Of a DNA stretch of 18,667 nucleotides, positions 1 through 18,076 are shown piece by piece. The stretch is from a virus (taxonomy: Duplodnaviria; Heunggongvirae; Uroviricota; Caudoviricetes). The stretch lies in the IMG/VR virus record IMGVR_UViG_2563366869_000001; one strand, 5' to 3'. Both the position numbers and the translations under genes were made by a program. The notes under the pieces were generated by a model, which was not told the DNA's origin, did no database searches, and saw only the letters and a program-made list of their open reading frames with translations. Every line of letters begins with the position of its first letter. Positions within the stretch are counted from its first letter, which is position 1.

Positions 1-1164
1 TTACGCCTTCTTTATATCCTCCATAATTCCACAGTGGGACATATTTGGGACATTATCACCAAAAATGTCGTCTATTTTCCTTGCATGCTCTGTCAAATGA
101 TTAGGCGCAAGGTGAGCATACCTACGAACCATTTCTATGGACTCCCATCCGCCCATTTCCTGAAGCACAGATAATGGGACGCCTGACTGGATCAGCCAGC
201 TTGCCCAGGTGTGTCTGAGGTCATGGAAACGGAAATCTTCAATTCCTGCACGACGACAAGCTGATAGCCATGATGTCTTGCTGTCGATGCGCATCTTCCT
301 GACCGCAGGCGTTGATGTTCCATCTGCTCGCTTAGCCGCCTTGGTATGTACAAACACCCATTTGTGATGCTTGCCTATTTGATCACGCAACACTTTACAG
401 GCGGTATCGTTCAGCGCCACACCAATGGCGCGGTTTGATTTGCTCTCTTCTGGATTCACCCAGGCAACTCGTCGCTGCATGTCGATTTGTTGCCATTCCA
501 GATTTATGATGTTCGACTTTCTCAGACCAGTTGCCAGCGCAAACTTGACGACAGATTTCAGTGGTTCGGGGCACTCATCAATAAGGCGTTTTGCTTCCTC
601 CTTTTCCAGCCATCTGACTCGCTTGTTTCTGACCGCTGGTATCTTGATGACAGGCGCTTTTTCCAGCCACTTCCAGTCGCGTTCTGCAGCACGGAGAATG
701 GCCTTTATCATGGCAAGATGCTTTGCCTTTGTCTGAGTTGATACTGGCTTTGGTTCATAAACAGGCGGTTCTTTACCTTTCCTGATGGCGGCCTGAACTT
801 TCTGTTTCCATATTTCTTTCGTCTTTCTGTTATGCATTCTGCTTACAGCAGAGTAAATCTTTGCCTCCGAGATATCTTTAAGCCTTATACCCTCAAAATG
901 TTCAAGCCAGAACTCAATCCGGCTTTTATCTGAATCGAGAGATTTTTTATCAGCTTTTTCCTCAAGCCATCTTAGGCAGGCCTCTTCAAAAGTGACATCA
1001 GGTAAATCCCCTAGCTTTTCTACTCGCCAGAGTTCTGCTTTTCGCTTGTCGTGCAACTCCTGAGCTTGCCGCTTGTCCTTTGTGCCAAGAGATTCCTTAA
1101 TTCGTTTCCCGCCCGGGAGCGAATACGAGGCATACCATATTTCATTTCTGCGGAAGAGTGACAT
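1..1164 (-). CDS. int: Tyrosine recombinase, phage integrase (resembles DLP12 IntD from memory)
   Basis: 387-aa ORF; C-terminal catalytic region with HDLRHT...R...Y signature ([19 protein letters not shown]); SD GAGGAAAG upstream of ATG at 1164..1162; stop codon is the first three bases of the window. Confidence 0.93.
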
Positions 1165-1391
1165 TTTCTTTCCTCTGTTATGCCATCACCCGCGCTCACC
1201 TGGACAGTATGCAGCGGAGACTGAAGCGCCGCAATGCAAGCTTGCCGTGTTGTGAGGTAAGGAGATTTTGGCTTGGTTGGATCTTTACGTGTTGCCTGTA
1301 GGCGGCCTGTTCGTATCCAGTTGGTGGCGGTTGGTCTGGATATCTTAAGAAACTGACAGGCCTCATCGAGTGTGAGGCTGTATGGCTCCAT
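1020..1391 (-). CDS. xis: Excisionase-like HTH protein (Xis/AlpA-type), overlapping the int start by about 48 codons
   Basis: Start chosen at [29 protein letters not shown] (HTH-like) with TAATG overlap to the upstream gene; 3' end overlaps int in another frame. True C-terminus uncertain; could be shorter or a pseudogene. Confidence 0.6.
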
Positions 1392-1696
1392 TATTTCACC
1401 TCTTGCTGTGTCATTGTTGAAAAATGGATACCAGCTCGTTGCTGCCAGACGATCCAACCGAGAGTCATATCCCATGCCATGTATTCGTTATCGCCGTTTT
1501 TTGCTCTCCGACGATCTACTAAGTCACCGAAACGCTTTTCCATGAATAATTCATAGGCTTCGCGTTCAACTGGCTCTACTTCCAGAGATACGAGTGCGAT
1601 TTCATAAGCACGGCGCTCAATATCGTCTCGAACCTCTAGGCTGCTGATTCGTTCTTTGATTTCTTTAATCAGTTCTTTATTGGTAAATGTGGTCAT
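1391..1696 (-). CDS. Hypothetical phage protein (101 aa)
   Basis: ORF translationally coupled on both sides by stop/start overlaps within the leftward operon; no recognisable motif. Confidence 0.6.
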   Translation of the reverse strand: MTTFTNKELIKEIKERISSLEVRDDIERRAYEIALVSLEVEPVEREAYELFMEKRFGDLVDRRRAKNGDNEYMAWDMTLGWIVWQQRAGIHFSTMTQQEVK

Positions 1697-2058
1697 TATG
1701 CTCCAGCCTCCGGTGCTTTTGGCATTACTGCCCAGTGAGTGATATTGACGTTTTCAAGGTCCCCGACCTGAAATGTCCACTGCCATTCTCCGGTTTCTTT
1801 TTGTCCCCAGGTGTACCAGAGAGAACGCCAGCCAATCAGCCAGCCTTCTCCATTAGCATCAAATAACAGAACACTTTCATTTGCTGGTGGCAGTTCAGCT
1901 GACACTGGTATTATTTTGTTTTCCAGTGCCGCACATTTAGCTTCAAGCGCGTCGAATTTACGTACCAGGTACTCAGCATTTGTTTCGTTCACTTTCAGAT
2001 CTCGCGGTACACATTTCCCGCGAAGAAACCCTTCCATTTCGAAAACATTCATGCGCAT
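1696..2058 (-). CDS. Hypothetical phage protein (120 aa), possibly DUF551-like
   Basis: ORF with 10-nt overlap to the upstream gene and 1-nt overlap to the downstream gene; Trp-rich C-terminal half. Family guess is from memory only. Confidence 0.6.
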   Translation of the reverse strand: MRMNVFEMEGFLRGKCVPRDLKVNETNAEYLVRKFDALEAKCAALENKIIPVSAELPPANESVLLFDANGEGWLIGWRSLWYTWGQKETGEWQWTFQVGDLENVNITHWAVMPKAPEAGA

Positions 2059-2585
2059 TTGCGTAACTCCGATAAATCGTTAAAACGTTCCATAAACATC
2101 CCGTAGGCATGACCCGGTGCCAGTGGAATCACGTTGAACATCTCTGTTGCCGGGATGCCTTCCAGTACAGGCCAGAAAGAGCCATCATCAAGCCCGAGAT
2201 CGCGGCGTTCGGTTGCCAGCATGATGAGATCGGCATATTTCACGGGTGTACTCATAACTGGGGGTAACCCGTATTTCTCACGGATTACGGCGTCTATTTT
2301 TTCTTCCATCCGTTTATAGTCAGGAAGAAGGCGTTTCAGTGGTGCGGGAATGTCCTGGCAATACGCTTCTGTTGCATCATGCATTAACGCTTCAAAAGCA
2401 AATTCCTGCGGCACCAGCTGGCTGCAAAGAACCGCATGTTGGGCGACGCTGTAGAAGTGCGAAAGATGACCGGCAAAGCGACAGATATTTGAAAGGGAAA
2501 CCGCGATATCGTTAATATCGATGTCGTCTTTATTTATCTTGTCATAATAAAAATGCTTCCCGGAAAAAGTTTTAATAAATGACAT
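2049..2585 (-). CDS. HD-domain phosphohydrolase (YfdR-like, CPS-53 prophage family)
   Basis: His/Asp motifs (FAGHLSHFYSVAQHAV, EALMHDATEAY) typical of HD hydrolases; start at internal ATG 2585..2583 with SD GGAG, giving MSFIKTFSGKHFYY (178 aa). Confidence 0.8.
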   Translation of the reverse strand: MSFIKTFSGKHFYYDKINKDDIDINDIAVSLSNICRFAGHLSHFYSVAQHAVLCSQLVPQEFAFEALMHDATEAYCQDIPAPLKRLLPDYKRMEEKIDAVIREKYGLPPVMSTPVKYADLIMLATERRDLGLDDGSFWPVLEGIPATEMFNVIPLAPGHAYGMFMERFNDLSELRKCA

Positions 2586-2678
2586 TTTGTTCTCCACGTA
2601 TATGCACTGCACCGCGCTGAATTCTGGTAAAAGGAAGCCCTCACCATCCGGTGATTATTGAGTTAATTACGTTTCCAT

Positions 2679-2700
2679 AAATGCCCCCGCAGGGGCATTT
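2679..2700 (-). other. Intergenic stem-loop (9-bp stem AAATGCCCC/GGGGCATTT, 4-nt loop) between yfdQ-like and yfdR-like genes
   Basis: Perfect inverted repeat seen directly; no strong U-tract on either strand, so more likely an RNA processing or stability element or attenuator than a strong terminator. Confidence 0.3.
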
Positions 2701-2712
2701 GCAGTAATGAAA

Positions 2713-3537
2713 TCAGGCGGTGAAAGTACCAATAAAGGTTTCTACTTTGCTGTCTTTGAATTTCTCAACAAGCAGATCACGAAATTCGTTAGCCATTTCT
2801 TCCTGCACCGCTTCCAGCTGAATAATGCGCAGAACCAGTACAGGACGATCGCCAGTGATAATGCTGAGGCGTAATTTAAACGGACGTTCTTTCAGACCTT
2901 CAAACGGAACGCATTTAAATTCAAATGCCACTGGCATAATGTCTTTGGTCTTCGCTTCGACAGACTCCATCAGGGAGCGTTTGCCGCTGAAGTCATTATC
3001 TTCAAAATCAGCGGTCTGGTTTGCTTCAATCGTGATTTTACGGACTGCCGCAGCCGCTTTTGTTGCTTGAATGGCGTCACCATTAGCATCAAAGCCCACA
3101 AGGTAGTCGGCCCAGTCTTCGATCCATTCTGCCAGTGACTTCTGGGAGTTACGCTCGCCGTTAACAGACAACAGAGCAGAGAACGGTGCTGTCTTTTTCA
3201 GTTTGAGAGTGGCAGTGTTATCTGCGTGACCTGGCTCATCAATAGTACCCAGGTTAAGCACACTGACGGCACGCATATTATCGGCATCGATAAAGCAGCG
3301 GGTGCCTTCATCTGCAAGATCTTTAGAATAACGGGTAAAATCATCGATGCTGGCAGTGGAAAGTGCACCACGGAAACGGAAGCGATTTAAATTAAATTTT
3401 TCCAGATCATGAATGCGGAAATTCTCAGGCAATGCCACAGCATCGGCACCAATCTTACTGATAATTTCATTAACACCCTGAGCAGAAATAAGGGCATGGA
3501 TTTGATTAATTGCGGTTGCGTCTAAGTTCTGAGACAT
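2713..3537 (-). CDS. YfdQ-like protein (DUF2303 family), 274 aa
   Basis: Full-length ORF with SD GAGGA 7 nt upstream; sequence recalled as similar to E. coli CPS-53 prophage YfdQ. Confidence 0.8.
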
Positions 3538-3602
3538 AATAAGTCCTCACTATATAAAGATATTCAGTGATGAGATAAATAATCAGTTTATTACGAACGA
3601 TA

Positions 3603-3965
3603 TTAACGACCTGCTGCGCGGAGTTTTCCGTCAGGTTCACCGGCAAGAGTCAGTAATTGTCCCTGGTCTTCCTGCAGAATAGTCAGGCGACCACCGCGAT
3701 TGACATACATCGGCGTTTCGGTGGTGTCTTCTTCGGAAATTTTCCCGCGGTTAGTCGGGCGAATATATGAGAGTTTGTGTTTGATTTTCACACGGTTCTC
3801 ATCAAATGGTTCGATTTCCAGGTTGAGTGAGACCTTACCTTTGGTTTTCGTGTTCATCACACCGGAAGCGACTTCACTGAGAACTGCGCCGATTTTGGTT
3901 TCAAATACGCCGCCGTCCAGCTCCCCGATAAATGCCTGCACATCAGTACTGCGTTCGCTAGCCAT
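3603..3965 (-). CDS. YfdP-like small protein (120 aa)
   Basis: Start assigned to ATG 3965..3963 (MASERSTDVQ...) preceded by SD GAGGAG at 7-nt spacing; the longer upstream extension in the ORF track has non-protein-like composition. Confidence 0.75.
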   Translation of the reverse strand: MASERSTDVQAFIGELDGGVFETKIGAVLSEVASGVMNTKTKGKVSLNLEIEPFDENRVKIKHKLSYIRPTNRGKISEEDTTETPMYVNRGGRLTILQEDQGQLLTLAGEPDGKLRAAGR

Positions 3966-4013
3966 TTTGCTGCTCCTCATCATATCGACCCTGCAAGGCC
4001 GATTAGTTTCTCC

Positions 4014-4102
4014 ACAAAACAGAGAAGAACACCTGTGGTGGCCGCCGCCCGGATGGATTGGGTTATGAGCCCGTCGTCCGGTGATGCTCTTCTCTGTTTT
4101 GT
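4014..4102. repeat. 15-bp perfect inverted repeat (ACAAAACAGAGAAGA / TCTTCTCTGTTTTGT) enclosing a 59-bp GC-rich segment
   Basis: Arms at 4014..4028 and 4088..4102 are exact reverse complements; lies in a non-coding leader upstream of the leftward operon. Confidence 0.7.
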
Positions 4103-4110
4103 AAAAAGGA

Positions 4111-4147
4111 CGGTACCAGCCGGAAGCAAGGGTACAAGCTGGTACCG
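4111..4147. repeat. 10-bp inverted repeat (CGGTACCAGC / GCTGGTACCG) with 17-nt loop
   Basis: Seen directly at 4111..4120 and 4138..4147; adjacent to three GGTGCC direct repeats (4175..4197) and a GCCTGG/CCAGGC stem (4195..4219). Confidence 0.6.
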
Positions 4148-4373
4148 CCAGGACTACACACAGCATAAAGTTGTGGTGCCGGGTGCCTCCCGGTGCCTGG
4201 CGAAGGTTGCACACCAGGCGGGTGGGTATCCACAGAAGGTCGACTGTCAGCCTCAACCTTAACCCGCGTGCGCTGAGCCGCATTCACCACAACGCTAAGG
4301 ATTCTCTCTGGTTGAAAATACTTAGCTGTTATGTGCCTGCTTTTAGCCACATCAGGCGAGGTGGACCTGGTTA

Positions 4374-4421
4374 TTCCCCAACAACAAGGATTCGGTTAAT
4401 CTGGATATCCCCAACAACAAT
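4374..4421 (+). repeat. Two direct copies of TCCCCAACAACAA spaced 34 bp apart, immediately upstream of the orf164 start
   Basis: Exact 13-mer at 4374..4386 and 4408..4420; the second copy ends about 14 nt before the candidate GTG start. Confidence 0.6.
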
Positions 4422-4434
4422 AAGAGTATTCAAT

Positions 4435-4950
4435 GTGATCGCTGAATTAACGGCAGCAATGACGGCTATTCGTGAAACAGCCCAGATTGCAAAACTAATG
4501 AACGAGGCAAAAACTCAAGCTGAAGTAAATGCGGCTATTGGTGAGCTGAACTCAAAGCTTGCGTCTATTCAGCGCGAATGCGTGTCTCTCGTTGAACTGG
4601 TGGGCTCTTATCAAGAAATAAATGCTTCTCTCAAAGCTAAAATTGCAGAATTCGAAAACTTTGAGGCTCAGACGGAAGGCTATATCCTTAACCAACTTGA
4701 GTCGGGTACTTTTGTATACTCGAAGGAGGTAATCGTGAACGGTGGCAGCATAACCATGCATCTTTGCCCAAAATGTTTTGGACAAAAGATAGTATCGATA
4801 CTTCAACCATTCCCGGTTAGCGAAGATGAGCTTTTTCATAAAAGCAGGTGCCTCCACTGTGAAAATAAGTTTCTGATGAATAAAAATCCGGATTACGTAT
4901 CGCCTCCATCCATTGAGGAGTTGTCCAGAAAACTTAACGGCAATCTGTAG
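4435..4950 (+). CDS. Hypothetical protein: N-terminal coiled-coil-like region plus C-terminal C4 zinc-ribbon (CPKC-x24-CLHC); convergent to cI
   Basis: Protein-like composition begins near GTG 4435 (AAGAG SD at 8-nt spacing) or ATG 4459; the upstream part of the track ORF (from 4171) is Arg/His/Trp-rich and GC-rich, so likely non-coding. Start is uncertain. Confidence 0.6.
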   Translation: MIAELTAAMTAIRETAQIAKLMNEAKTQAEVNAAIGELNSKLASIQRECVSLVELVGSYQEINASLKAKIAEFENFEAQTEGYILNQLESGTFVYSKEVIVNGGSITMHLCPKCFGQKIVSILQPFPVSEDELFHKSRCLHCENKFLMNKNPDYVSPPSIEELSRKLNGNL

Positions 4951-4987
4951 ATTACTACTGTTGTGGATATCCAGATTGTTAAAGAGC

Positions 4988-5012
4988 TAAGCGTCCTGTA
5001 GGGCGCTTTTTT
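4988..5012 (+). terminator. Rho-independent terminator downstream of orf164
   Basis: Stem AGCGTCC/GGGCGCT with 4-nt loop followed by TTTTTT, 38 nt after the TAG stop at 4948..4950; oriented for plus-strand transcripts only. Confidence 0.65.
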
Positions 5013-5094: not shown

Positions 5095-5124
5095 AAATCT
5101 AACTTAACTTAGTTATCATGACAA
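5095..5124 (-). promoter_or_regulatory. Candidate pL-like leftward promoter with overlapping operator motif AACTTAGTT
   Basis: On the minus strand: -35 TTGTCA (5124..5119), 18-bp spacer, -10 TAGATT (5100..5095); the 9-mer AACTTAGTT (5106..5114) in the spacer recurs at the pR side (5883..5891). By-eye prediction. Confidence 0.35.
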
Positions 5125-5177: not shown

Positions 5178-5804
5178 TTAGAGTTCGTATTGAACTCCTT
5201 TGACTACACCAATGATAAGGCAATTACCATTGATAGGGATGTTGGGATACCGAGGATTTAATGGCACTAAAAACTTTTGAGGGCCATCGATGACTAATTT
5301 TTTTACTGTAGCTTCGTTTGTTCCATCAAGTCGAGCGATGACTATTTTTCCATGACGAGGTTCTGCATCTGGATCTACAATCACTGTTGCGCCTTCTGGT
5401 ATTGTTGGGAGGCCATTAGGGTTAGTCATGGAGTCACCTTTAACCTCTAATGCAAATGAGTTATCACCAACCTTTAATGATGTATCTACCCACTTGTCCA
5501 CTTCACTAAACACTTCTGCTGCCCTGCACTCAGTAAACTGCCCAGCCTGAACCCACGATATTACAGGAACTCTGCGCATGTTTGTGACGAGTTTGCCTTC
5601 AAACTCAGCACCGTAAAGAATGTAATCTATTGACGTATTGAAGAACTTCGCTAATTTCGAAAGTGCCTCCCCGCCAGGGGTATTGATGTCTTTCTCCCAG
5701 TACCCCACAGCAACGTCGCTTACTCCACAAAATTTACCCAATTCTTTCTGGGACGTTCTGGTAACTCTTCTCAGAGCTTTTATACGCTGACCAACCGTTT
5801 CCAT
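5178..5804 (-). CDS. CI-like prophage repressor (N-terminal HTH plus C-terminal LexA/S24-type autopeptidase domain)
   Basis: 208-aa ORF; HTH near QKELGKFCGVSDVAVGYWE; C-terminal region with Ser (GDSM) and Lys (TVKKL) spaced as in the S24 catalytic dyad; divergent from a cro-like gene. Confidence 0.9.
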   Translation of the reverse strand: METVGQRIKALRRVTRTSQKELGKFCGVSDVAVGYWEKDINTPGGEALSKLAKFFNTSIDYILYGAEFEGKLVTNMRRVPVISWVQAGQFTECRAAEVFSEVDKWVDTSLKVGDNSFALEVKGDSMTNPNGLPTIPEGATVIVDPDAEPRHGKIVIARLDGTNEATVKKLVIDGPQKFLVPLNPRYPNIPINGNCLIIGVVKGVQYEL

Positions 5805-5826: not shown

Positions 5827-5891
5827 CTAAGTAATCTTAGTTTTTATTGACCAAAGATAGATTTGTAATTAGCATCTAACAAAACTTAGTT
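5827..5891 (+). promoter_or_regulatory. Immunity-region operator/promoter (pR-like; pRM probably overlaps on the opposite strand)
   Basis: Palindrome CTAAGTAATCTTAG (5827..5840); -35 TTGACC (5847..5852), 17-bp spacer, -10 TAGCAT (5870..5875); AACTTAGTT at 5883..5891; cro SD GGAGGG follows. Confidence 0.5.
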
Positions 5892-5901
5892 TGGAGGGCG
5901 T

Positions 5902-6102
5902 ATGACAACTGACGATATCGAAAGCTACTTCGGCAGTATTGAGAAAGTTGCTGCTTTTTTCGGCATAACAACTGAAGCCGTTTATCAGTGGCGAAACCGT
6001 CCGGGCCAGTTAATTCCAAAAGGACGTGCAGCAGAAGCTGCATATAGAACTTGCGGACGGTTGCCATTTAAACCTGAGCTTTATGAAAAATCTAATGGAT
6101 AA
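5902..6102 (+). CDS. Cro-like small HTH regulator (YdaS-like)
   Basis: 66-aa ORF divergent from cI; HTH-like VAAFFGITTEAVYQWRN; strong SD GGAGGG. Confidence 0.85.
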   Translation: MTTDDIESYFGSIEKVAAFFGITTEAVYQWRNRPGQLIPKGRAAEAAYRTCGRLPFKPELYEKSNG

Positions 6103-6691
6103 ATCGATTAACAGAAACCACAGAACGATGAGGCTAACCGTGGGTAAGCATCACTGGAAAGTAGAAAAACAGCCTGAGTGGTACGTGAAAGCTGTCAGAA
6201 AAACTATCGCAAAGTTGCCGGGTGGTTACGCTGAAGCAGCTGACTGGCTGGATGTAACAGAGAACGCATTATTTAACCGCCTTCGTGCCGATGGCGATCA
6301 GATTTTCCCGCTGGGATGGGCAATGATTTTGCAACGTGCTGGTGGAACTCACTTCATTGCTGACGCAGTGGCGCAGTCTGCAAATGGCGTCTTTGTGTCT
6401 CTTCCTGACGTCGAGGATGTGGACAACGCCGATATTAACCAGCGCCTGCTGGAAGTCATTGAACAGATCGGCAGTTATTCAAAACAGATTCGTTCAGCAA
6501 TTGAAGACGGTGTAGTGGAACCGCATGAGAAGACAGCAATTAACGACGAGCTGTACCTCTCAATTTCGAAGCTGCAGGAGCATGCAGCACTGGTCTACAA
6601 AATTTTTTGCATTTCAGAAAGTAATGACGCCCGCGAGTGTGCAGCTCCGGGCGCCGTGGCGTGTCGTGACTGTGGAGAAACTAACGCATGA
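6083..6691 (+). CDS. YdaT-like protein (CII-analog regulator family, from memory)
   Basis: ORF immediately after cro, overlapping its end; start ambiguous between ATG 6083, ATG 6095 and a later Met; followed by an ATGA-coupled downstream gene. Confidence 0.7.
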
Positions 6692-7026
6692 ACAGTTTAA
6701 CAACACACTACCGTCGCTCGCAACTGATTGCGCTTCCTGTACCGGGTGGAAAAGCGAAGGTGGAATATTGCTATGCAGTGAATGTACCAGGTGACAGGGA
6801 AATTGTAACCCACAGCTTTGCAGAGTGGGCTGTGGGTGATTTCAACCGGCAGAAGGAGACAGTCCTTTGCGACAAGTTAACCGCTGGTTCAAAGATCACT
6901 ACGGAGTACCCGTCAGAGTCATTCGTTGGGAGCCGGAAACACAACGGGTTATCTACCTCCGCGAAGGCTATGAGCATGAGTGCTTCAGCCCGCTCGAACA
7001 GTTTCGTCGTAAATTCAGGGAAATAG
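6688..7026 (+). CDS. Hypothetical protein (112 aa)
   Basis: ATG overlaps the ydaT-like stop (ATGA coupling); ends 9 nt before the SD of the O-like gene; no recognisable motif; overlapping alternative-frame ORFs exist. Confidence 0.45.
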
Positions 7027-7035
7027 AGGTCGGTC

Positions 7036-7992
7036 ATGAGCACTAAATTAACCGGCTATGTATGGGATGGTTGCGCTGCGTCAGGCATGAAGTTATCCAG
7101 CGTGGCAATTATGGCCCGCCTGGCTGATTTCAGTAATGACGAAGGTGTGTGCTGGCCATCAATTGAAACCATTGCACGCCAGATTGGCGCGGGGATGAGT
7201 ACCGTCAGAACGGCTATCGCACGGCTGGAAGCAGAAGGCTGGTTAACGCGTAAGGCGCGTCGCCAGGGTAACCGCAATGCGTCGAATGTTTATCAGCTTA
7301 ACGTTGCGAAGCTTCAGGCAGCGGCATTTTCTCAACTGTCAGATTCTGACCCGTCAAAATCTGACCCGTCAAAATCTGTCCCGTCAAAATCTGTCCCGTC
7401 AAAATTTGATGCGTCGAAATCTGGTAAAAAAGCGGGTTTTCACCCGTCAGAATCTGGCGGGGATCCGTCAGTAAAATCAAAACATGATCCGTCAGATAAA
7501 AAAACTTCTCGTCCGGACGCTTCGCAACCGGACACGCAGACGGATGAACAGGATTTTTTAACTCGCCATCCTGATGCGGTTGTATTCAGCCCTAAAAAGC
7601 GCCAGTGGGGGACGCAGGATGATTTGACCTGCGCACAGTGGCTCTGGAAAAAAATCATCGCCCTGTACGAGCAGGCTGCCGAATGTGACGGCGAGGTGGT
7701 TCGTCCCAAAGAACCGAACTGGACAGCCTGGGCAAACGAAATTCGCCTGATGTGTGTGCAGGATGGTCGTACTCACAAACAAATCTGCGAGATGTACAGC
7801 CGCGTCAGCCGCGATCCGTTCTGGTGCCGTAACGTGCTCAGCCCGTCGAAGCTGCGGGAAAAATGGGATGAGCTTTCCCTGCGCTTATCGCCGTCCGTCA
7901 GCACGTACACAGAAAAACGCGAAGACCCGTACTTCAAAGCCAGTTACGACAATGTGGACTACAGCCAGATCCCGGCAGGATTCAGGGGGTGA
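7036..7992 (+). CDS. Replication initiator, lambda O-like (N-terminal HTH; origin iterons inside the gene)
   Basis: 318-aa ORF with SD GAGG; N-terminal HTH-like segment (PSIETIARQIGAGMSTVRTAIARLEAEGWL); the DPSKS/VPSKS peptide repeats are encoded by DNA iterons, as the lambda ori is within O. Confidence 0.8.
   Translation: MSTKLTGYVWDGCAASGMKLSSVAIMARLADFSNDEGVCWPSIETIARQIGAGMSTVRTAIARLEAEGWLTRKARRQGNRNASNVYQLNVAKLQAAAFSQLSDSDPSKSDPSKSVPSKSVPSKFDASKSGKKAGFHPSESGGDPSVKSKHDPSDKKTSRPDASQPDTQTDEQDFLTRHPDAVVFSPKKRQWGTQDDLTCAQWLWKKIIALYEQAAECDGEVVRPKEPNWTAWANEIRLMCVQDGRTHKQICEMYSRVSRDPFWCRNVLSPSKLREKWDELSLRLSPSVSTYTEKREDPYFKASYDNVDYSQIPAGFRG
7345..7419. repeat. Origin-type iterons: four tandem 15-bp repeats TCTG(A/T)CCCGTCAAAA plus a degenerate fifth; further CCGTCAG copies to about 7500, then an A-rich tract
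   Basis: Exact tandem copies at 7345, 7360, 7375, 7390; degenerate copy at 7405; embedded in the O-like gene. Confidence 0.8.
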
Positions 7993-7994
7993 GC

Positions 7995-8483
7995 ATGAGT
8001 CTTTTGAATGACGTTCAGAAATTCATTGAAGCCCATCCGGGCTGTACTTCCGGAGACATTGCGGATGCTTTTGCAGGTTACTCACGGCAGCGCGTTCTGC
8101 AGTCAGCAAGCAAGTTACGTCAGAGTGGGCGTGTGGCTCACCGTTGTGAAGGAGATACACGCAGACATTTCCCGCGCCTGACTGAGAGAGCGCAGGATCC
8201 GGAACCACAACCAGTTCGTGAAACCAGACCTGTGCGCAATTTCTATGTCGGCACTAACGACCCGCGGGTGATTTTGTGCCTGACCCGCCAGGCGGAAGAA
8301 CTGGAGTCCAGGGGCTTATACCGTCGTGCTGCAACGGTGTGGATGGCGGCATTCCGTGAAAGCCACTCCCAGCAAGAGCGAAACAATTTTCTTGCGCGTC
8401 GTGAGCGGTGTTTACGGAAAAGCAGCAAGCGCGCTGTATCGGGTGAAGAGTGGTATCTGTCAGGGAATTACGTGGGGGCTTAA
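7995..8483 (+). CDS. Hypothetical protein (162 aa) in the position of lambda P; possible N-terminal winged-helix
   Basis: ATG 7995 with SD GGGGGTGA, overlapping the O-like stop; Arg-rich C-terminus; no helicase-loader motifs recognised. Confidence 0.65.
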   Translation: MSLLNDVQKFIEAHPGCTSGDIADAFAGYSRQRVLQSASKLRQSGRVAHRCEGDTRRHFPRLTERAQDPEPQPVRETRPVRNFYVGTNDPRVILCLTRQAEELESRGLYRRAATVWMAAFRESHSQQERNNFLARRERCLRKSSKRAVSGEEWYLSGNYVGA

Positions 8484-8809
8484 TGACGACGTTAACTCAA
8501 TGCCAGCAGCAGGTGCTGGATATGCTGATTTCTTACCAGAAAGAACGTGGCTTCCCGCCAACCAATCAGGAGGTGGCTACCATGCTGGGATACCGTTCAG
8601 TGAATGCAGCGGTGGAGCATCTTCGCGCACTGGAGAAAAAAGGCGTCATCACGATAAAGCGTGGCGTGGCCCGGGGCATCACGCTTCATACCGCGGTGAA
8701 GGACGACGACAGCGAGGTGGCCGGGATTATCCGCGCACTGCTTGCTGGTGAGGAAAACGCCAGGCTGCGTGCAGCCCACTGGTTACATGAGAGGGGGCTG
8801 AAAGTATGA
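8483..8809 (+). CDS. LexA-like N-terminal DNA-binding-domain-only protein (108 aa), no S24 peptidase domain
   Basis: MTTLTQCQQQVLDMLISYQKERGFPPTNQEVATMLGYRSVNAAVEHLRALEKKGVITIKRGVARGITL aligns nearly residue-for-residue with the E. coli LexA N-terminal domain ([65 protein letters not shown]), from memory; TAATG coupling upstream, ATGA coupling to rusA. Confidence 0.8.
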   Translation: MTTLTQCQQQVLDMLISYQKERGFPPTNQEVATMLGYRSVNAAVEHLRALEKKGVITIKRGVARGITLHTAVKDDDSEVAGIIRALLAGEENARLRAAHWLHERGLKV

Positions 8810-9195
8810 AGCTGATTCTGCCTTTTCCACCCAGCGTGAACACCTACTGGCGACACCCCAACAAAGGGGCATTTGCTGGTAAGAGCCTGATAAGCGAGGC
8901 GGGGCGAAAATTCCAGAGTGCGGCGTGCACAGCAATAGTTGAGCAGTTACGTCGTCTGCCGAAACCAACGTCGGCACCTGCTTCAGTGGAGATCGTGTTG
9001 TTTCCCCCGGATAACCGGATCCGCGATCTGGACAACTATAACAAGGCGCTGTTTGACGCCCTGACCCACGCGGGTGTGTGGGAAGACGACAGCCAGGTGA
9101 AAAGAATGCTGGTGGAGTGGGGACCGGTTATCCCGGAAGGGAAGGTCGAGATCACTATCAGTAAGTACGAGAAAACGGCGGGTGCAGCCGCCTGA
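8806..9195 (+). CDS. rusA: RusA-family Holliday-junction resolvase
   Basis: 129-aa ORF; RusA-like motifs (LPFPPSVNTYWRH, DLDNYNKALFDALT) recalled from E. coli RusA. Confidence 0.85.
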   Translation: MKLILPFPPSVNTYWRHPNKGAFAGKSLISEAGRKFQSAACTAIVEQLRRLPKPTSAPASVEIVLFPPDNRIRDLDNYNKALFDALTHAGVWEDDSQVKRMLVEWGPVIPEGKVEITISKYEKTAGAAA

Positions 9196-9214
9196 TCAAG
9201 AGGAGAAACGAAGT

Positions 9215-10012
9215 ATGAATAATCTGATGGTCATTGATGGTATTGAAGTTCGTCGTGATGCTTATGGGCGTTACAGCCTGAACGATCTGCACAGGGCTGC
9301 CGGTTCTCTGGATAAGCATAAGCCTGCATTCTGGCTCCGCAATGAGCAAACTGAACGTTTAATAAGCGAGTTGCAGATTTGCAACTCGGTCAATATAGAG
9401 CCAGTTAACGTTATTCGTGGCGGAAATAACCAGGGGACGTATGTCTGCAAAGAACTGGTGTATGCCTATGCAATGTGGATCAGCCCGTCATTCCATCTGA
9501 AGGTGATCCGTACTTTCGATATGGTAACCAGCGCATCGGAAAAATTATCCGGGCAGGCTGCTGACAAGATGCAGGCTGGCGTGATTCTGCTGGACTTTAT
9601 GCGCCGGGAGTTAAACCTGTCTAACTCTTCAGTGCTTGGTGCCTGTCAGAAACTCCAGGAGGCTGTTGGCTTACCGAATCTGGCACCGCGCTATGCCATT
9701 GATGCTCCTGCTGACGCGCCTGATGGCTCAAGCCGTCCCACGCTGTCACTGAGTGCACTGCTGAAGCAGTATGGTATCCGCCTGACAGCTAATCAGGCAT
9801 ATCACCAGATGGTGAAGCTGGGGATCGTCGAGCAGCGCGAACGATACAGCCGTACCGCGATTAACAACATCAAAAAATTCTGGTCGCTGACAGCGAAAGG
9901 CTGCATGTTCGGCAAGAACATCACCAGTCCCGCAAATCCGCGCGAGACGCAGCCGCATTTCTTCGAATCCCGATTCCCTGAGCTGTTAAAGCTGCTCGAT
10001 ACCGTTCATTGA
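9215..10012 (+). CDS. KilA-N domain protein (antirepressor-like)
   Basis: Start at ATG 9215 with SD AGGAGA; N-terminal KilA-N-like segment (IDGIEVRRDAYGRYSLNDLHRAAG...FWLRNEQTERLISEL). Confidence 0.75.
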   Translation: MNNLMVIDGIEVRRDAYGRYSLNDLHRAAGSLDKHKPAFWLRNEQTERLISELQICNSVNIEPVNVIRGGNNQGTYVCKELVYAYAMWISPSFHLKVIRTFDMVTSASEKLSGQAADKMQAGVILLDFMRRELNLSNSSVLGACQKLQEAVGLPNLAPRYAIDAPADAPDGSSRPTLSLSALLKQYGIRLTANQAYHQMVKLGIVEQRERYSRTAINNIKKFWSLTAKGCMFGKNITSPANPRETQPHFFESRFPELLKLLDTVH

Positions 10013-10013
10013 G

Positions 10014-11009
10014 GTGACCGTGAGAGCACTACTGACCCCTGAAATTGCCCCGCGTATGGGGATCGTATTGTTCAGGCCCGGTTCAGAGCTGATGCCCCTG
10101 TTTATGCAGGGGCGTGTACTGCTGGAGCCTGAGCCGGAGCATTATTCATCTTTCGCCAGTGGTGCCGTTCCCGCGGCATCACAACCGCTGGCGGATGATC
10201 CTGCCGTTCGGGCCGTGTTCCGTAATGAGGCAGTGATCCGTCGTGCTGGTGGGGTGGAATGTCTTGAAAGCTGGTTACTTCGTGAAAAAGGCTGCCAGTG
10301 GCCTCATTCCGACTGGCACAGCGAGAACATGACCACAATGCGACACGCGCCGGGCGCAATCCGTCTGTGCTGGCACTGCGATAATCAGTTACGTGATCAG
10401 TTCACGGAGCGGCTGGAATCAATGGCAACGGATAACTGTGCCCGTTGGGTGTTGTCTGTAGTCCGTCGGGATCTCGATTTTAATGATAACCATGCCGTGA
10501 CAATGCCGGAACTGTGCTGGTGGCTGGTTCGTAATGACCTGGCGGATGCCTTACCGGAAAGCGCAGCCCGTAAGGCACTGAGATTACCGAAGTCTGTTTT
10601 GCCGTCTGTCACCCGGGAAAGTGACCTTGTGCCTTCGGTTCCTGCCACCAGCATTATCCAGGATAAAGCGAAAAAGGTGCTGGCGCTGAAAGTGGATCCG
10701 GAGTCGCCGGAGTCTTTTATGTTACGCCCCAAACGTCGTCGCTGGGTTAATGAACAGTACACGCGCTGGGTTAAGACGCAGCCGTGTGCATGTTGTGGAA
10801 AGCCAGCTGATGATCCGCATCATCTGATAGGCCATGGTCAGGGTGGAATGGGTACAAAAGCGCATGACCTTTTTGGGCTGCCTTTGTGCAGAAAACACCA
10901 CGACGAACTGCATGCGGATACCGTGGCATTTGAAGAGAAGTATGGCTCCCAGCTGGAGCTGATATTTCGTTTTATCGATCGCGCACTGGCGATTGGTGTG
11001 CTGGCCTGA
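10014..11009 (+). CDS. DUF968-family protein (YdfU-like) with C-terminal Cys/His-rich HNH-like motif
   Basis: C-terminal [43 protein letters not shown]; sits immediately upstream of Q as ydfU does next to quuQ in Qin (from memory). Start uncertain (GTG 10014, GTG 10020 or a later ATG). Confidence 0.7.
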
Positions 11010-11026
11010 TTTTGTGGAGAAAGTTA

Positions 11027-11410
11027 ATGCGTGATATTCAGATGGTTCTTGAACGTTGGGGAGCGTGGGCGGCTAATAATCATGAAGATGTGACCTGGTC
11101 GTCCATTGCCGCCGGTTTTAAGGGATTAATTCCTTCAAAAGTAAAATCTCGCCCGCAATGTTGTGACGATGACGCGATGATCATTTGCGGGTGCATGGCC
11201 CGTCTGAAAAAGAACAACAGCGATTTGCACGATTTATTAGTAGATTATTATGTAGTCGGTATGACATTCATGTCACTGGCAGGTAAGCATTGCTGCTCTG
11301 ATGGTTATATCGGGAAAAGGTTACAGAAGGCTGAGGGCATAATTGAAGGGATGTTAATGGCATTAGATATCCGGTTAGAGATGGATATCGTTGTTAATAA
11401 CTCTAATTAA
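11027..11410 (+). CDS. Late-gene antiterminator Q (phage 82 / QuuD-type), 127 aa
   Basis: Start at ATG 11027 with SD GGAGA; Cys-rich region ([27 protein letters not shown]) characteristic of this Q family, from memory. Confidence 0.85.
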
Positions 11411-11425
11411 TATGCCAATTGTTTA

Positions 11426-11461
11426 CTAAAAATTATTAAAAATGGGGCGTTGAGACGCCCC
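11426..11461 (-). terminator. Rho-independent terminator for the porin transcript
   Basis: Stem GGGGCGT/ACGCCCC (11444..11461) followed on the minus strand by AUUUUUAAUAAUUUUU; the plus-strand side is A-rich, so it is unidirectional. Confidence 0.6.
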
Positions 11462-11600
11462 CAAAAATAAAGGGTAATATATAACAGAAGGTTTATATAG
11501 TTAGAAGCAAGGTTGTGCTTCTAAAGGAAGTGGCTTGAGGGAGCCACTTATATGTTGGGGAGGCAACGCCTCCCGCAACATATCTTTTTCGTAATCAGAT
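11462..11600 (-). ncRNA. Candidate sRNA or structured 3' UTR downstream of the porin gene (IpeX-like position)
   Basis: Three consecutive hairpins (11503..11522, 11528..11549, 11558..11574) between the porin stop and its terminator; in DLP12 the sRNA IpeX maps between quuD and nmpC (recalled, not verified). Confidence 0.3.
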
Positions 11601-12697
11601 TAGAACTGGTAAACCAGACCTACAGCAACGATGTCATCAGTGCTTACACCGAGTGCTTTAGTGAAGTCATTTTTGTCAAGCAGGTTGATTTTGTAATCAA
11701 CGAAAGTAGACATATTTTTGTTGAAGTAATAGGTTGCACCTACATCAACATATTTGACTAAGTCCTGATCGCCCCATACTCCAAGATCCTTACCTTTAGA
11801 TTGCAGGTAAGCAACGGACGGACGCAGACCGAAATCGAACTGATATTGTGCAACAGCTTCGAAGTTTTGGGCTTTATTAGCAACGAAGTGATCAGCAAAT
11901 ACAGTCATATTCTGGGTTTCAGAATAGGTAGTGGCCAGGTAAATGTTGTTAGCGTCATATTTCAGACCTGCGGCCCAAACTTCTGCATTTTTACCGGAAG
12001 CAAATACTTCAGGAAGAACTTTCCCTGCATTAACTTGAGTGTCGGTACGATCAGATTTCGCATAAGTTGCACCGATACCGAATCCTTCGTATTCATAGGT
12101 AGCAGAGAAACCGAAGCCATCACCGTTACCTTCAGTGTAGTTATCGAAATCGCTACGATCGTTTTTGCCTTGGTACTGAGCAGCAAAGTTCAGACCATCA
12201 ACCAGACCAAAGAAGTCGTTGTTACGATAGGTTGCAACACCAGTGGTGCGACCAGTCATGAACACATCTGTTTGGGTCCAGGTATCGCCACCGAATTCTG
12301 GCAGAACGTCAGTCCACGCACCGATGTCGTATGCTACACCGTAGTTACGGCCGTAATCGATTGAGCCGTAGTCACCGAATTTCAGGCCTGCAAATGCAAG
12401 ACGGGTTTTGTCTTTGGAGGAACCTTGAGATTCAGCGCGGTTGCCTTTGAATTCATATTCCCACTGACCGAAACCAGTCAGTTGATCGTTGATTTGGGTT
12501 TCACCTTTGAAGCCAAGACGGGCATAAGTAGTATCACCATCATCTGCATCATTAGAGGAGAAGTAGTGCTTAGCATTAACTTTCCCGTACAGATCCAGCT
12601 TGTTACTGTCTTTATTATAAATTTCAGCTGCCTGAGCAGACATCGCCATCAGTACTGATGCAGCTACAGCAGAAATTGCCACTGTTAATTTTTTCAT
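11600..12697 (-). CDS. Phage-encoded OmpC-family general porin (Lc/NmpC-type), with signal peptide
   Basis: Start at ATG 12697 ([30 protein letters not shown]); C-terminal aromatic residue (…VGLVYQF); porin sequence characteristic throughout; encoded opposite to Q and the lysis genes. Confidence 0.92.
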
Positions 12698-13124
12698 CGT
12701 GAGCCCTTTTTTTGAACTATTATTAAAAAATGATGTCACTGCGCGATAAATATTCATCTAATCAATGTGATTATTTCAAGATGTAAGTTTTGGTTTCTCG
12801 TTTGATTTGTGAAGTAGATCTCTATTTTTATCTGAACTTTTTTCTATCGAATCCTATTCATAGCTCTTTGCTGAATAAAAATAAATCTATTAGCCAATTT
12901 ATATTAACGGCTGTTATTTATAAGCGCTCTATAATTTGAGGGTTCAATTTAAATAAGCTAAAAATAACACTGGAAATAATTTGTTGGTTATTTGTTGAGA
13001 TTTGCTTATGTATTTGTAGTGGTGTTTTCAATACTCGGTAGCATTCTCGCAAATATCATTTAGTGGTTTACGTACGTAAAAAATTGGTTATGCTGTTAAG
13101 AGTGGTTACTTCGTCACACAGCTT

Positions 13125-13158
13125 AAACCCGCCGTCGAGCGGGTTTTTCCATTTTTTG
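13125..13158 (+). terminator. Strong rho-independent terminator 115 bp upstream of the holin; probable tR' target of Q
   Basis: Stem AAACCCGC/GCGGGTTT with 6-nt loop followed by TTCCATTTTTT; no ORF between it and the upstream AT-rich region, as for the lambda pR'-tR' short transcript. Confidence 0.7.
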
Positions 13159-13269
13159 AGTCTCGATATTAGCTGATAACCCAATACCTGAGTTATTCAC
13201 TGACTCCGAGTCTGTTACGTTTCGTAGTATTCCCTCAATTTACACCCGCTTTGTCTGCGAGGTGGGGTT

Positions 13270-13485
13270 ATGAAATCCATGGATAAGTTAACAACGGGTG
13301 TCGCCTATGGCACCTCAGCAGGTAGTGCCGGGTACTGGTTTTTACAGCTGCTAGATAAAGTCACGCCCTCACAGTGGGCGGCAATTGGAGTGCTGGGTAG
13401 CCTGGTATTTGGCCTGCTGACGTACCTGACAAACCTTTATTTCAAGATTAAAGAAGATAAGCGCAAGGCTGCGAGAGGTGAATAA
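13270..13485 (+). CDS. Class II holin (phage 21 S-type pinholin) with dual-start motif
   Basis: [26 protein letters not shown]... with two in-frame ATGs (13270 and 13279), two TMDs and a charged C-terminus; from memory near-identical to S21. Confidence 0.9.
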
Positions 13486-13982
13486 TGTCGCCATCATTAC
13501 GCAAGGCTGTAGCAGCTGCTATTGGTGGTGGGGCTGTTGCCATAGCGTCTGTGCTCATCACTGGTCCGAGTGGTGACGATGGTCTGGAAGGTGTCAGCTA
13601 CATACCATATAAAGATATTGTTGGTGTATGGACTGTATGTCACGGGCATACAGGAAAAGACATCATGCTCGGTAAAACGTATACCAAAGCAGAATGCAAA
13701 GCACTCTTGAATAAAGACCTTGCCACTGTCGCCAGACAAATTAACCCGTACATCAAAGTCGATATACCGGAAACAACGCGCGGCGCTCTTTACTCATTCG
13801 TTTACAACGTGGGTGCTGGCAATTTCAGAACATCGACGCTTCTTCGCAAAATAAACCAGGGCGATATCAAAGGCGCATGTGATCAGCTACGTCGCTGGAC
13901 ATATGCTGGCGGTAAGCAATGGAAAGGTCTCATGACTCGTCGTGAGATTGAGCGTGAAATCTGTTTGTGGGGTCAGCAATGA
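13485..13982 (+). CDS. SAR endolysin (lysozyme, GH24-type) with N-terminal signal-anchor-release segment
   Basis: Gly/Ala-rich weakly hydrophobic N-terminus ([20 protein letters not shown]) followed by lysozyme-like core; TAATG coupling to the holin. Confidence 0.9.
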
Positions 13983-14440
13983 ACAGAGTAACAGCGATTA
14001 TCTCCGCTCTGGTTATCTGCATCATCGTCGGCCTGTCATGGGCTGTTAATCATTACCGTGATAACGCCATTACCTACAAAGCCCAGCGCGACAAAAATGC
14101 CAGAGAACTGAAGCTGGCGAACGCGGCAATTACTGACATGCAGATGCGTCAGCGTGATGTTGCTGCGCTCGATGCAAAATACACGAAGGAGTTAGCTGAT
14201 GCGAAAGCTGAAAATGATGCTCTGCGTGATGATGTTGCCGCTGGTCGTCGTCGGTTGCACATCAAAGCAGTCTGTCAGTCAGTGCGTGAAGCCACCACCG
14301 CCTCCGGCGTGGATAATGCAGCCTCCCCCCGACTGGCAGACACCGCTGAACGGGATTATTTCACCCTCAGAGAGAGGCTGATCACTATGCAAAAACAACT
14401 GGAAGGAACCCAGAAGTATATTAATGAGCAGTGCAGATAG
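13979..14440 (+). CDS. Rz inner-membrane spanin (i-spanin)
   Basis: ATG overlapping the endolysin stop (ATGA); N-terminal TMD then coiled-coil-like periplasmic domain. Confidence 0.88.
14199..14381 (+). CDS. Rz1 outer-membrane lipoprotein spanin (o-spanin), embedded in Rz in the +1 frame
   Basis: Lipobox LVVVGC, Pro-rich mature region ([16 protein letters not shown]); SD GGAG 8 nt upstream; fully nested within Rz. Confidence 0.88.
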
Positions 14441-14471
14441 AGCTGCCCATATCGATGGGCAACTCATGCAA

Positions 14472-14765
14472 TTATTGTGAGCAATACACACGCGCTTCCA
14501 GCGGAGTATAAATGCCTAAAGTAATAAAACCGAGCAATCCATTTACGAATGTTTGCTGGGTTTCTGTTTTAACAACATTTTCTGCGCCGCCACAAATTTT
14601 GGCTGCATCAACAGTTTTCTCCTGTCCAATTCCCGAAACGAAGAAGTGATGGGTGATGGTTTCCTTTGGTGTTACTGCTGTCGGTTTGTTTCCAACAGTA
14701 AACGTCTGTTGAGCACATCCTGTAATAAGCATTGCCAGAGCGGCAGAAAACAACATTTTTTTCAT
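14472..14765 (-). CDS. bor: Bor lipoprotein (serum-resistance moron)
   Basis: Start at internal ATG 14765 (MKKMLFSAALAMLITGC, lipobox); sequence near-identical to lambda Bor from memory. Confidence 0.9.
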   Translation of the reverse strand: MKKMLFSAALAMLITGCAQQTFTVGNKPTAVTPKETITHHFFVSGIGQEKTVDAAKICGGAENVVKTETQQTFVNGLLGFITLGIYTPLEARVYCSQ

Positions 14766-15124
14766 CTTATTATCCTGCATTGTTAAAAACGGCAGAATCC
14801 TATGTGACAACAATTAAACGATAGTTAAATGGATTGATGAAAATTAAAACTATATAGGTGGATGCTCAGCCTATTGGAGGAGGGGGGCACTCAGAATCCT
14901 GTGGAATGAAATAAACCGCTCTTTCTGTCCATTACCCTTTTAGCTGCGCTGTATCGTCGCCGTATTCCCGCATTAACCATGACCGTAGCCCGACGGGGAA
15001 TTCCTTCTGCGTGAGTGTGCGGGAATAATCAAAAACGATGCACACCGGGTTTTACTGTGCTGACAGACGCAGGGTTACCCTCATAGTCGCTTTTCCGGTG
15101 CGATGGTGGAAGAAACCGGGATGT

Positions 15125-15319
15125 TTATTCATCATCACTTTGGATTGATGTATATGCTCTCTTTTCTGACGTTAGTCTCCGGCGGCAGGCTTCAATGACC
15201 CAGGCTGAGAAATTCCCGGACCCTTTTTGCTCAAGAGCGATGTTAATTTGTTCAATCATTTGGTTAGGAAAGCGGATGTTGCGGGTTGTTGTTCTGCGGG
15301 TTCTGTTCTTCGTTGACAT
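15125..15319 (-). CDS. Small ribbon-helix-helix (CopG/Arc-like) DNA-binding protein, 64 aa
   Basis: Basic N-terminal strand then two helices (TRNIRFPNQMIEQINIALEQ...NFSAWVIEACRRRL); SD GGGG upstream; last gene before the cos site. Confidence 0.6.
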   Translation of the reverse strand: MSTKNRTRRTTTRNIRFPNQMIEQINIALEQKGSGNFSAWVIEACRRRLTSEKRAYTSIQSDDE

Positions 15320-15479
15320 GAGGTTGCCCCGTATTCAGTGTCGCTGATTTGTATTGTCTGAAGTTTTTTTTACGTTAAGTTGATGCAGATCAATTAATAC
15401 GATACCTGCGTCATAATTGATTATTTGACGTGGTTTGATGGCGTAGATGCACGTTGTGACATGTAGATGATAATTATTA

Positions 15480-15700: not shown

Positions 15701-15707
15701 ATGAACA

Positions 15708-17979: not shown

Positions 17980-18076
17980 GGTAAAACATATAAATTCTAT
18001 AATTAGATGTATCTTTCCATTTACGGCAAGGAAGGGGGCTTGGAAGACGTAAAGCATCTCACACCGAGATTATTTT

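Follow-up and report, generated by a model that had tools for sequence, protein, structure and literature searches.

Which genes fill the place that the red genes hold in lambda, and what those genes do, is the question raised by IMG/VR virus record IMGVR_UViG_2563366869_000001, an 18,667-nucleotide stretch of Caudoviricetes DNA (hereafter, the window). In the window, this slot lies between the immunity region (a cI-like gene and cro) and xis/int (1-1391), and it is occupied by a block of five leftward genes at 1391-3965. A first-pass annotation, made from the letters of the sequence, had described the block as a YfdP-like gene, a YfdQ-like (DUF2303) gene, a YfdR-like gene for an HD-domain hydrolase and two unknowns, and had suggested functions in host takeover or in countering host defense. 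Here, we report that the observation is correct and that the block is the already known, and very common, yfdPQRST cassette. We further propose, at about even chances, that the cassette is an early-left (pL) accessory operon for the takeover of host replication, of the type found in Shigella flexneri phage SfV and in the Escherichia coli K-12 prophage CPS-53.

The five genes are the yfdPQRST cassette

The open reading frames (ORFs) of the block (Table 1), their RefSeq names and their family matches agree with one another, and with the YfdP-like, YfdQ-like and YfdR-like labels given before. YfdQ covers positions 2-269 of the 269 positions of the Pfam DUF2303 profile (PF10065; 309.7 bits, cut-off 26.6). 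Residues 50-117 of YfdS pass the DUF551 threshold marginally (PF04448; 22.2 bits, cut-off 22), and the protein matches phrog_583 at 1e-82; K-12 YfdS, which has the identical sequence, appears in the literature as a DUF551 protein. YfdP and YfdT match PHROG families of unknown function; our local copy of Pfam returned no family for YfdP, and cluster representatives that are 98-100% identical to it carry a precomputed match to PF27127, named YfdP. Each of the five genes is preceded by a Shine-Dalgarno-like motif, and the 40 coding nucleotide differences from the K-12 copy lead to only nine amino acid changes, a bias toward synonymous substitution. We conclude, therefore, that the five ORFs are genuine genes and did not arise by chance. 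The description of some of them as unknowns cannot be upheld, because all five are named K-12 genes to which a paper has been dedicated (PMC4776307).

The CPS-53 (KpLE1) prophage of K-12 carries yfdPQRST with the same gene order, gene lengths, junction overlaps and intergenic hairpin as the window, and the two copies are 98.1% identical in nucleotide sequence over 2575 ungapped columns. The encoded proteins differ at no residue in YfdS, at one in YfdR, at two in YfdQ and at three each in YfdP and YfdT. As no protein differs by more than three residues, the results published for K-12 transfer directly to the window proteins. The surroundings of the two copies are different. The window is integrated at argU with intD, whereas the K-12 prophage is at argW with intS, and the homology between the two reaches only about 20 nt beyond the 5' end (ATG) of yfdP. 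K-12 has lost cI and cro, and its cassette is joined to an iteron-bearing remnant of the O gene yfdO, whereas the window retains an SfV-like leader, the cI-like repressor and cro.

The same cassette is found in phages that are viable. In SfV, orf28-orf32 are 97.5% identical to the window cassette over its full length, and SfV shares with the window the upstream leader, the order cI ... yfdP-like ... xis-int and a slot without red-type genes. Between cI and the leader, SfV has a same-strand gene, orf33, flanked by putative terminators, whereas the window has an opposite-strand ORF of 171 amino acids (4435-4950). The cassette of phage PhiR29_1 is 99.8% identical to that of the window, and those of several Stx2c phages are about 97% identical. 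Of 5426 complete E. coli genomes, 1936, or about a third, carry the cassette at a coverage of at least 80%, and 3037 carry at least some part of it. Module frequencies were determined from an IMG/VR scan by YfdQ alignment, which returned only contigs identical, or nearly so, to the query. Among the 80 prophage contigs with the same YfdQ, YfdP was found in all 80 and YfdR in 77, while YfdS was found in at least 54 and YfdT in at least 37, the last two counts being lower bounds because some contigs end early.

The early-left region of lambda (N ... cIII kil gam bet exo ... ea22 ea8.5 xis int) occupies the same slot between the immunity region and xis/int, in the same leftward orientation as in the window. 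Both regions are mosaics of small accessory genes that contain an opposite-strand gene inside the operon, which in lambda is sieB. The content differs, however, in that searches for Exo, Bet, Gam, Kil and N homologues detected none in the window, where yfdPQ, the HD-domain gene and DUF551-type genes are found in their place.

The genes had also been called tightly coupled, which describes one half of the block better than the other. The yfdR and yfdS genes overlap by 10 nt; the yfdS stop codon and the yfdT start codon overlap in the sequence ATAATG, as do the yfdT stop codon and the start codon of the probable xis gene at 1391; and the 3' end of the probable xis overlaps int. In contrast, 65 nt separate yfdP from yfdQ, and 127 nt, including a hairpin, separate yfdQ from yfdR. 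The centroid structure of this hairpin has a free energy of -15.8 kcal/mol, with a z-score of -3.5 relative to shuffled sequences, and the hairpin is identical in K-12. It has no long U-tract, and the terminator scan did not call it. We consider the hairpin a candidate attenuator or partial terminator that divides yfdPQ from yfdRST; in K-12, yfdPQ is listed as a separate operon (PMC9181523).

YfdR, DnaA and the initiation of host replication

YfdR matches phrog_318, annotated as deoxyribonucleoside 5' monophosphate phosphatase, at 5e-110. In an alignment with Atu1052, an HD protein of solved structure (2gz4, E-value 4e-14), residues H49, H68-D69, E72 and D118 of YfdR fall opposite identical residues. 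As judged by this alignment, the metal-site residues of the HD domain are intact in YfdR. YfdR falls below the curated cut-offs of the YfbR-like family (PF12917; 24.3 versus 25.9 bits), of HD_3 (17 versus 22.5) and of NCBIfam NF003009 (19.9 versus 122), and we assign it, therefore, to a separate HD subfamily that is related to YfbR. With the YfbR-type 5'-deoxynucleotidases, YfdR shares the H...HD...E...D metal-site residues and PHROG families annotated as phosphatases of deoxyribonucleoside monophosphates (dNMPs). Dmp of phage T5 is presumably an HD-domain 5'-deoxynucleotidase of the type to which YfdR is likened. According to Zimmerman et al. (2008), in what is cited of that work in PMC4776307, the K-12 YfdR protein is a weak 5'-deoxynucleotidase, that is, a 5'-dNMP phosphatase, and is a structural homologue of YfbR that has a much lower affinity for nucleotides. 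YfdR differs from YfbR in having an additional activity, the binding of DnaA (PMC4776307).

The evidence that connects the cassette with host replication comes from the work of Noguchi and Katayama, who found yfdQRST as a multicopy suppressor of the overinitiation caused by hda-185. Multicopy yfdQRT or yfdQRS was sufficient, in that yfdQ and yfdR were each needed together with either yfdS or yfdT, while yfdP was not needed. Extra copies blocked initiation from oriC in wild-type, dnaAcos, seqA, DARS and diaA backgrounds, and extracts containing YfdQRST inhibited oriC replication in vitro. Purified YfdR bound to domain I of DnaA in a manner that depended on Phe46, and it competed moderately with DiaA and DnaB, which use the same residue; SirA of Bacillus subtilis uses the counterpart residue. 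The authors proposed that the genes served the growth of a viable ancestral phage in a role comparable to that of lambda P, and pointed to SfV orf29-31 (PMC4776307 for all of the above). YfdR has no kinship in sequence or fold to lambda P, SirA, Dps or DiaA, and lambda P binds to a different part of DnaA, domain III. Unlike these DnaA-acting proteins, YfdR exerts its effect only with co-expressed YfdQ and either YfdS or YfdT, and the effect is known from overexpression only.

Starting from the established identity of the genes and from the demonstrated genetics and biochemistry of K-12, we infer that takeover of host replication is the natural role of the cassette in phage growth, as we do the parts that YfdP and YfdQ would play in it. 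One could envision the following scenario. Upon inactivation of the cI-like repressor, leftward transcription would lead to expression of the cassette proteins. YfdR, helped by YfdQ and by YfdS or YfdT, would then occupy the Phe46 surface of DnaA that is used by DiaA and DnaB, and new rounds of initiation at oriC would be blocked. With oriC blocked, the helicase, the replisome and precursors would be diverted to the O-type origin of the phage itself, and the nucleotidase activity of YfdR may also trim the dNMP pool. If the shut-off of oriC by YfdQ and YfdR is a true phage strategy, then temperate phages would have a second route, independent of lambda P, by which the host replication machinery can be diverted.

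Several observations weigh against this proposal. The phenotype appears only on overexpression, deletion of yfdQRST is without effect on initiation, and the authors of the K-12 study concede that the phenotype may be an artefact; furthermore, YfdQ, YfdS and YfdT did not co-purify with DnaA or with YfdR (PMC4776307). The phenotype does not need YfdP, yet YfdP is invariably linked to YfdQ; it is probable, therefore, that the P-Q pair serves primarily some other function. The prophage is defective, given that its O-like gene is frameshifted and most of its structural genes are missing, and thus the operon cannot serve phage growth in this strain now. Finally, the pL/oL site from which the operon would be expressed was assigned by consensus matching only. 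The suggestion that the slot holds host-takeover functions is supported, then, by the published finding that near-identical K-12 proteins inhibit oriC initiation and that YfdR binds DnaA domain I.

The yfdP-yfdQ pair and recombination genes

A match to the YfdP profile was found directly upstream of YfdQ, on the same strand, in all 14 lineages sampled, which represent six bacterial groups. They are SfV, Salmonella ST64B, the Stx phages phi191 and P13374, prophages of Klebsiella and Yersinia, Xanthomonas CP2, Pseudomonas PG1 and LPPA56, Vibrio 24E35.2, 1.232.O and D93, Halomonas H4907, and Psychrobacter Psymv2. The YfdP-like protein of CP2, ORF38, shows 39% identity to YfdP. A YfdR homologue directly follows the pair in SfV, ST64B and the Klebsiella and Yersinia prophages, and is positioned one gene further downstream in Pseudomonas LPPA56. 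That the P-Q-R order is kept across these relatives fits the genetic requirement for both yfdQ and yfdR. Homologues of YfdS and YfdT were found, among the sampled lineages, only in the SfV-type locus. The N-terminal segments of YfdS (49 amino acids) and YfdT are common to other PHROG families, which indicates a mosaic build for YfdS and is reminiscent of the Ea22/DUF551 mosaic proteins described in PMC10834534. The cassette is composed of a P-Q pair to which R, S and T are separately added, and its five genes did not co-evolve as a single unit. We view it as a mosaic of three modules: the obligate yfdP-yfdQ pair; yfdR; and yfdS with yfdT, whose products are small mosaic proteins of the "ea-region" kind and whose translation is chained to that of xis.

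None of the five proteins matches a recombinase, exonuclease or Gam family in Pfam, PHROG or NCBIfam. In tblastn searches with lambda Exo, Bet and Gam, with RecT, Exo, Gam and the single-stranded-DNA-binding protein (SSB) of P13374, and with Erf of CP2, not one of the 80 related contigs had a match within 9 kb, and the absence of recombination genes is, therefore, a stable property of this lineage. These results confirm that the slot is without exo/bet/gam-type genes. The further statement, that the cassette is present instead of recombination genes, holds for the window and the 80 contigs but calls for qualification, since in other phages the yfdP-yfdQ pair sits beside genes for RecT, Erf, an exonuclease or SSB. 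An uncharacterised ORF of 511 amino acids comes after the pair in Xanthomonas CP2, with genes for Erf, an exonuclease, an endonuclease and SSB next in line, and in Stx2a phages the order is Gam-RecT-Exo-SSB-YfdP-YfdQ. The pair is located between genes for a DnaQ-like exonuclease and SSB in Vibrio 24E35.2, and at 2.6 kb from a Rad52-like gene in Vibrio 1.232.O; in Burkholderia JC1, RecT and YqaJ are gp5/6, and the DUF2303 protein is gp10 (PMC9144972). No recombination gene was seen near the pair in SfV, ST64B, PG1 and the Halomonas, Psychrobacter and Klebsiella/Yersinia representatives, which amount to at least six lineages. The pair accompanies recombination or SSB genes, then, about as often as it stands alone. 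JC1 gp10 has been reported to be virion-associated by mass spectrometry (PMC9144972), an unexpected location given that the DUF2303 gene is in an early, non-structural region in every phage examined.

Clustering at 50% identity divides the DUF2303 family into about 1786 clusters; among the best 150 listed, length is uniform and no fusion is obvious. Residues R56, T61, Y70, H104, E140, D141, R166, R223 and R237 of YfdQ are nearly invariant. YfdQ homologues form a large homo-oligomer: one of them, from a CP2-like Xanthomonas phage, has been deposited as a 36-chain structure under the name YfdQ Protein (PDB 9o7m); it is about 38% identical to YfdQ of the window and 98.8% identical to that of Xanthomonas phage MET23-P3. 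A literature search for 9O7M and for cryo-electron microscopy of YfdQ returned no relevant paper, and 9o7m contains no YfdP-like or CP2 ORF36-like chain. We considered whether the entry is part of a data set on a CP2-like virion and rejected this idea, as no close capsid entry is present in PDB. The predicted structure of YfdP (pLDDT 68), which gave no fold match, consists of a helix and a three-strand meander; the tail is highly conserved and is modelled with low confidence. Neither the YfdQ model nor the YfdP model matched Rad52, RecT or an OB-fold.

Alternative roles of the cassette

If the P-Q pair has a function of its own, one hypothesis is that it is a cryptic accessory of DNA metabolism or recombination that works on DNA ends, single-stranded DNA or replication intermediates, either by scaffolding or protecting them as an oligomer or by partnering SSB. 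The slot would then not be functionally empty of recombination and replication functions. The invariable pairing of YfdP with YfdQ in the 14 lineages, the 36-chain assembly and the position of the pair, which abuts recombination or single-stranded-DNA genes in CP2, the Stx2a phages and Vibrio 24E35.2 and is near them in Vibrio 1.232.O and JC1, are all consistent with such a function. The four arginines, His104 and Glu140-Asp141 among the near-invariant residues of YfdQ would suit binding to phosphate or nucleic acid, and a yfdQ deletion raises sensitivity to methyl methanesulfonate, according to a report cited in PMC4776307. YfdQ is, however, acidic, with an isoelectric point of about 5.0, and the lineages in which the pair has no recombination gene nearby speak against the hypothesis. 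We also considered YfdQ as a replacement single-strand annealing protein (SSAP) or Gam, and set this aside because YfdQ co-occurs with complete sets of RecT or Erf, Gam and SSB; this co-occurrence with full SSAP, exonuclease and SSB sets argues that YfdQ is neither an annealing protein nor an equivalent of Gam. We hold the accessory hypothesis to be rather doubtful. A broader proposal would regard yfdP-yfdQ as an uncharacterised obligate two-protein module of lambdoid, Xanthomonas, Pseudomonas, Vibrio, Halomonas and Psychrobacter phages, whose large YfdQ homo-oligomer targets either host replication proteins or the intermediates of replication or recombination, and which would represent a new class of early DNA-metabolism or host-takeover factor that stands in the Red-type place in SfV-like phages. 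We think that this is unlikely.

The remaining alternatives place the benefit of the cassette either in the lysogen or in the contest with host defenses. Retention in defective prophages for host survival of oxidative stress or DNA damage, and not for phage growth, would explain why the cassette remains intact, under purifying selection, while the prophage around it has lost replication and structural genes, and why it is so frequent among complete E. coli genomes. In K-12, deletion of yfdS lowers survival in H2O2 (Wang et al., PMC3105296), multicopy yfdQRST increases resistance to hydroxyurea (PMC4776307), yfdPQ mRNA is detectable in growing cells, and the host regulator SrsR binds the yfdO/yfdP spacer more strongly than any other of its genomic targets (PMC9181523). 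Conservation needs no selection at the level of the host, however, as a cassette that is 97-100% identical is carried by SfV, PhiR29_1 and the Stx2c phages. In addition, the window has none of the K-12 SrsR boxes ahead of yfdP, which would make SrsR regulation an accident of the K-12 deletion, and the intact cI-like repressor of the window should keep the operon silent. A benefit to the lysogen seems to us quite unlikely on this evidence. The second alternative, raised in the first-pass annotation, is that YfdR hydrolyses nucleotide immune signals (cyclic oligonucleotides, molecules of the cyclic ADP-ribose type or (p)ppGpp) or counters defenses that deplete nucleotides, and that its neighbours are further counter-defense factors. 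Genes of this kind, such as ral and gam of lambda, are indeed carried in lambdoid early-left accessory regions, and the HD active site of YfdR appears intact. Many unrelated phages, among them virulent and jumbo phages, encode YfdR-like HD proteins, which suggests a general benefit, and because the affinity of YfdR for dNMPs is reported to be low in the account given in PMC4776307, its best substrate may be a different one. Yet the sole reported activity of YfdR is 5'-dNMP hydrolysis, the phage family is annotated as a dNMP phosphatase under nucleotide metabolism, and a nucleotidase lowers nucleotide pools and so offers no obvious counter to dNTP-depletion defenses. The literature retrieved on yfdR, yfdQ, yfdP/S/T and DUF2303 shows no link to a defense system, and none of the listed Pfam and PHROG matches is annotated as anti-defense. 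PADLOC-DB, which covers defense but not anti-defense, returned no family for the five proteins or for the plus-strand ORF at 4435-4950. Given also that an independent target with experimental support, DnaA, is available, a second-messenger or anti-defense role for the HD protein finds no backing here, and we judge it very improbable.

Control region and phage origin

An operator-like palindrome, CTAAS-N4-CTTAG, is present in three copies at 5099-5112, 5827-5840 and 5876-5889. The latter two are in the cI/cro spacer, and the first lies across a promoter-like site on the minus strand, a short way downstream from where cI ends. We propose from these motifs that the site at 5124-5096 is a putative pL/oL. 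The cI-like repressor would hold the early-left operon off in the lysogen, and transcription from the candidate pL would run antisense through the ORF at 4435-4950 and continue through the SfV-like leader into yfdP. The antisense position of this ORF within the presumed early-left transcript is also that of sieB in lambda. The ORF is bracketed by 26-nt inverted repeats that are 85% complementary (4398-4423 and 4952-4977), and a strong terminator follows it at 4989-5008. It is present in 9 of the 80 related contigs, and SfV orf33 is present in 13. A frameshifted hypothetical ORF lies within the leader, as does an inverted repeat of 18 nt (4014-4031 and 4085-4102).

Five 11-nt repeats (TCAGATTCTGA, TCAGATTTTGA, ACAGATTTTGA, which occurs twice, and TCAAATTTTGA) are located at 7339-7409 with an exact spacing of 15 nt, inside the frameshifted O-like replication gene (7036-7992), and are probably the iterons of the phage ori. 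Their motif is that of the SrsR box (TCAGATTTTGC) published for the yfdO/yfdP spacer of K-12 (PMC9181523). When the K-12 SrsR boxes were sought upstream of yfdP in the window, they were found to be absent there and to correspond to the iterons at 7339-7409. The identity of the two motifs implies that the strongest genomic SrsR site of K-12 would be a remnant phage origin.

Prophage context

The first 6.2 kb of the window match E. coli strain E14 (NZ_CP121149) at 100%, and by the RefSeq annotation of E14 the window directly adjoins tRNA-Arg (argU). The region is a lambdoid prophage, now defective, that occupies the argU/DLP12 site and whose regulatory and early part resembles that of SfV. The RefSeq gene list of E14 begins with intD, yfdT, a gene named phage protein, yfdR, yfdQ and yfdP, and continues with a frameshifted hypothetical gene, an opposite-strand hypothetical gene, a LexA-family (cI-like) repressor, cro, ymfL and the frameshifted O-like replication gene. 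The list goes on with yfdN, genes for RusA, KilA-N and DUF968 proteins, quuD, a porin gene, lysis genes, iss and nohD, and closes with a truncated terminase gene, tail-fibre remnants and a recombinase gene. The coordinates of the features discussed are given in Table 1.

Table 1. Features of the cassette and its control region in the window
Feature	Position	Strand	Description
intD integrase	1..1164	-	end of leftward transcription unit, beside tRNA-Arg (argU); RefSeq
probable xis	1020..1391	-	123 amino acids from internal ATG at 1391; phrog_2907 excisionase, 1.3e-45; HTH_17/excisionase domain
yfdT	1391..1696	-	101 amino acids; RefSeq protein YfdT; phrog_660, 4e-31
yfdS-like	1696..2058	-	120 amino acids; N-terminal segment and C-terminal DUF551 domain
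yfdR	2049..2585	-	178 amino acids; HD-domain 5'-deoxynucleotidase, DnaA-binding (K-12 protein); RefSeq name 5'-deoxynucleotidase
hairpin AAAUGCCCC-UGCG-GGGGCAUUU	2679..2700	-	9-bp, G+C-rich; 12 nt past yfdQ stop codon
yfdQ	2713..3537	-	274 amino acids; DUF2303/YfdQ family
yfdP	3603..3965	-	120 amino acids; first gene of conserved yfdP-yfdQ pair; probable member of YfdP family PF27127
leader upstream of yfdP	3966..4330	-	nearly identical to region upstream of SfV orf32
ORF	4435-4950	+	171 amino acids; phrog_1244 (unknown function); C-terminal CxxC...CxxC
candidate pL/oL	5096..5124	-	promoter-like TTGTCA-17-TAGATT over operator-like palindrome CTAAC-N4-CTTAG; promoter scan and repeat family
cI-like repressor (HTH and S24 peptidase)	5178..5804	-	Pfam Peptidase_S24, 1.8e-27; HTH_3; phrog_4
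cro	5902-6102	+	

At the xis position of E14, RefSeq gives only a 66-nt pseudogene fragment with a helix-turn-helix motif, yet the ORF that starts at 1391 covers the whole phrog_2907 profile. The SfV annotation places xis at the same position as the ORF at 1020-1391, and the xis gene of the window may be intact.

In the Klebsiella and Yersinia ruckeri prophages and in ST64B, the early-left operon ends with a gene for an Rv2179c-like 3'-5' exoribonuclease immediately before xis/int, a gene absent from the window and from SfV. The remainder of the window (6200-18667) is defective yet rich in morons. Its O-like gene is frameshifted, its large terminase gene is truncated, and its tail-fibre genes are remnants only, whereas an nmpC-like porin gene, iss (a bor homologue), quuD, the lysis genes and a gene for a Pin-type recombinase are intact.

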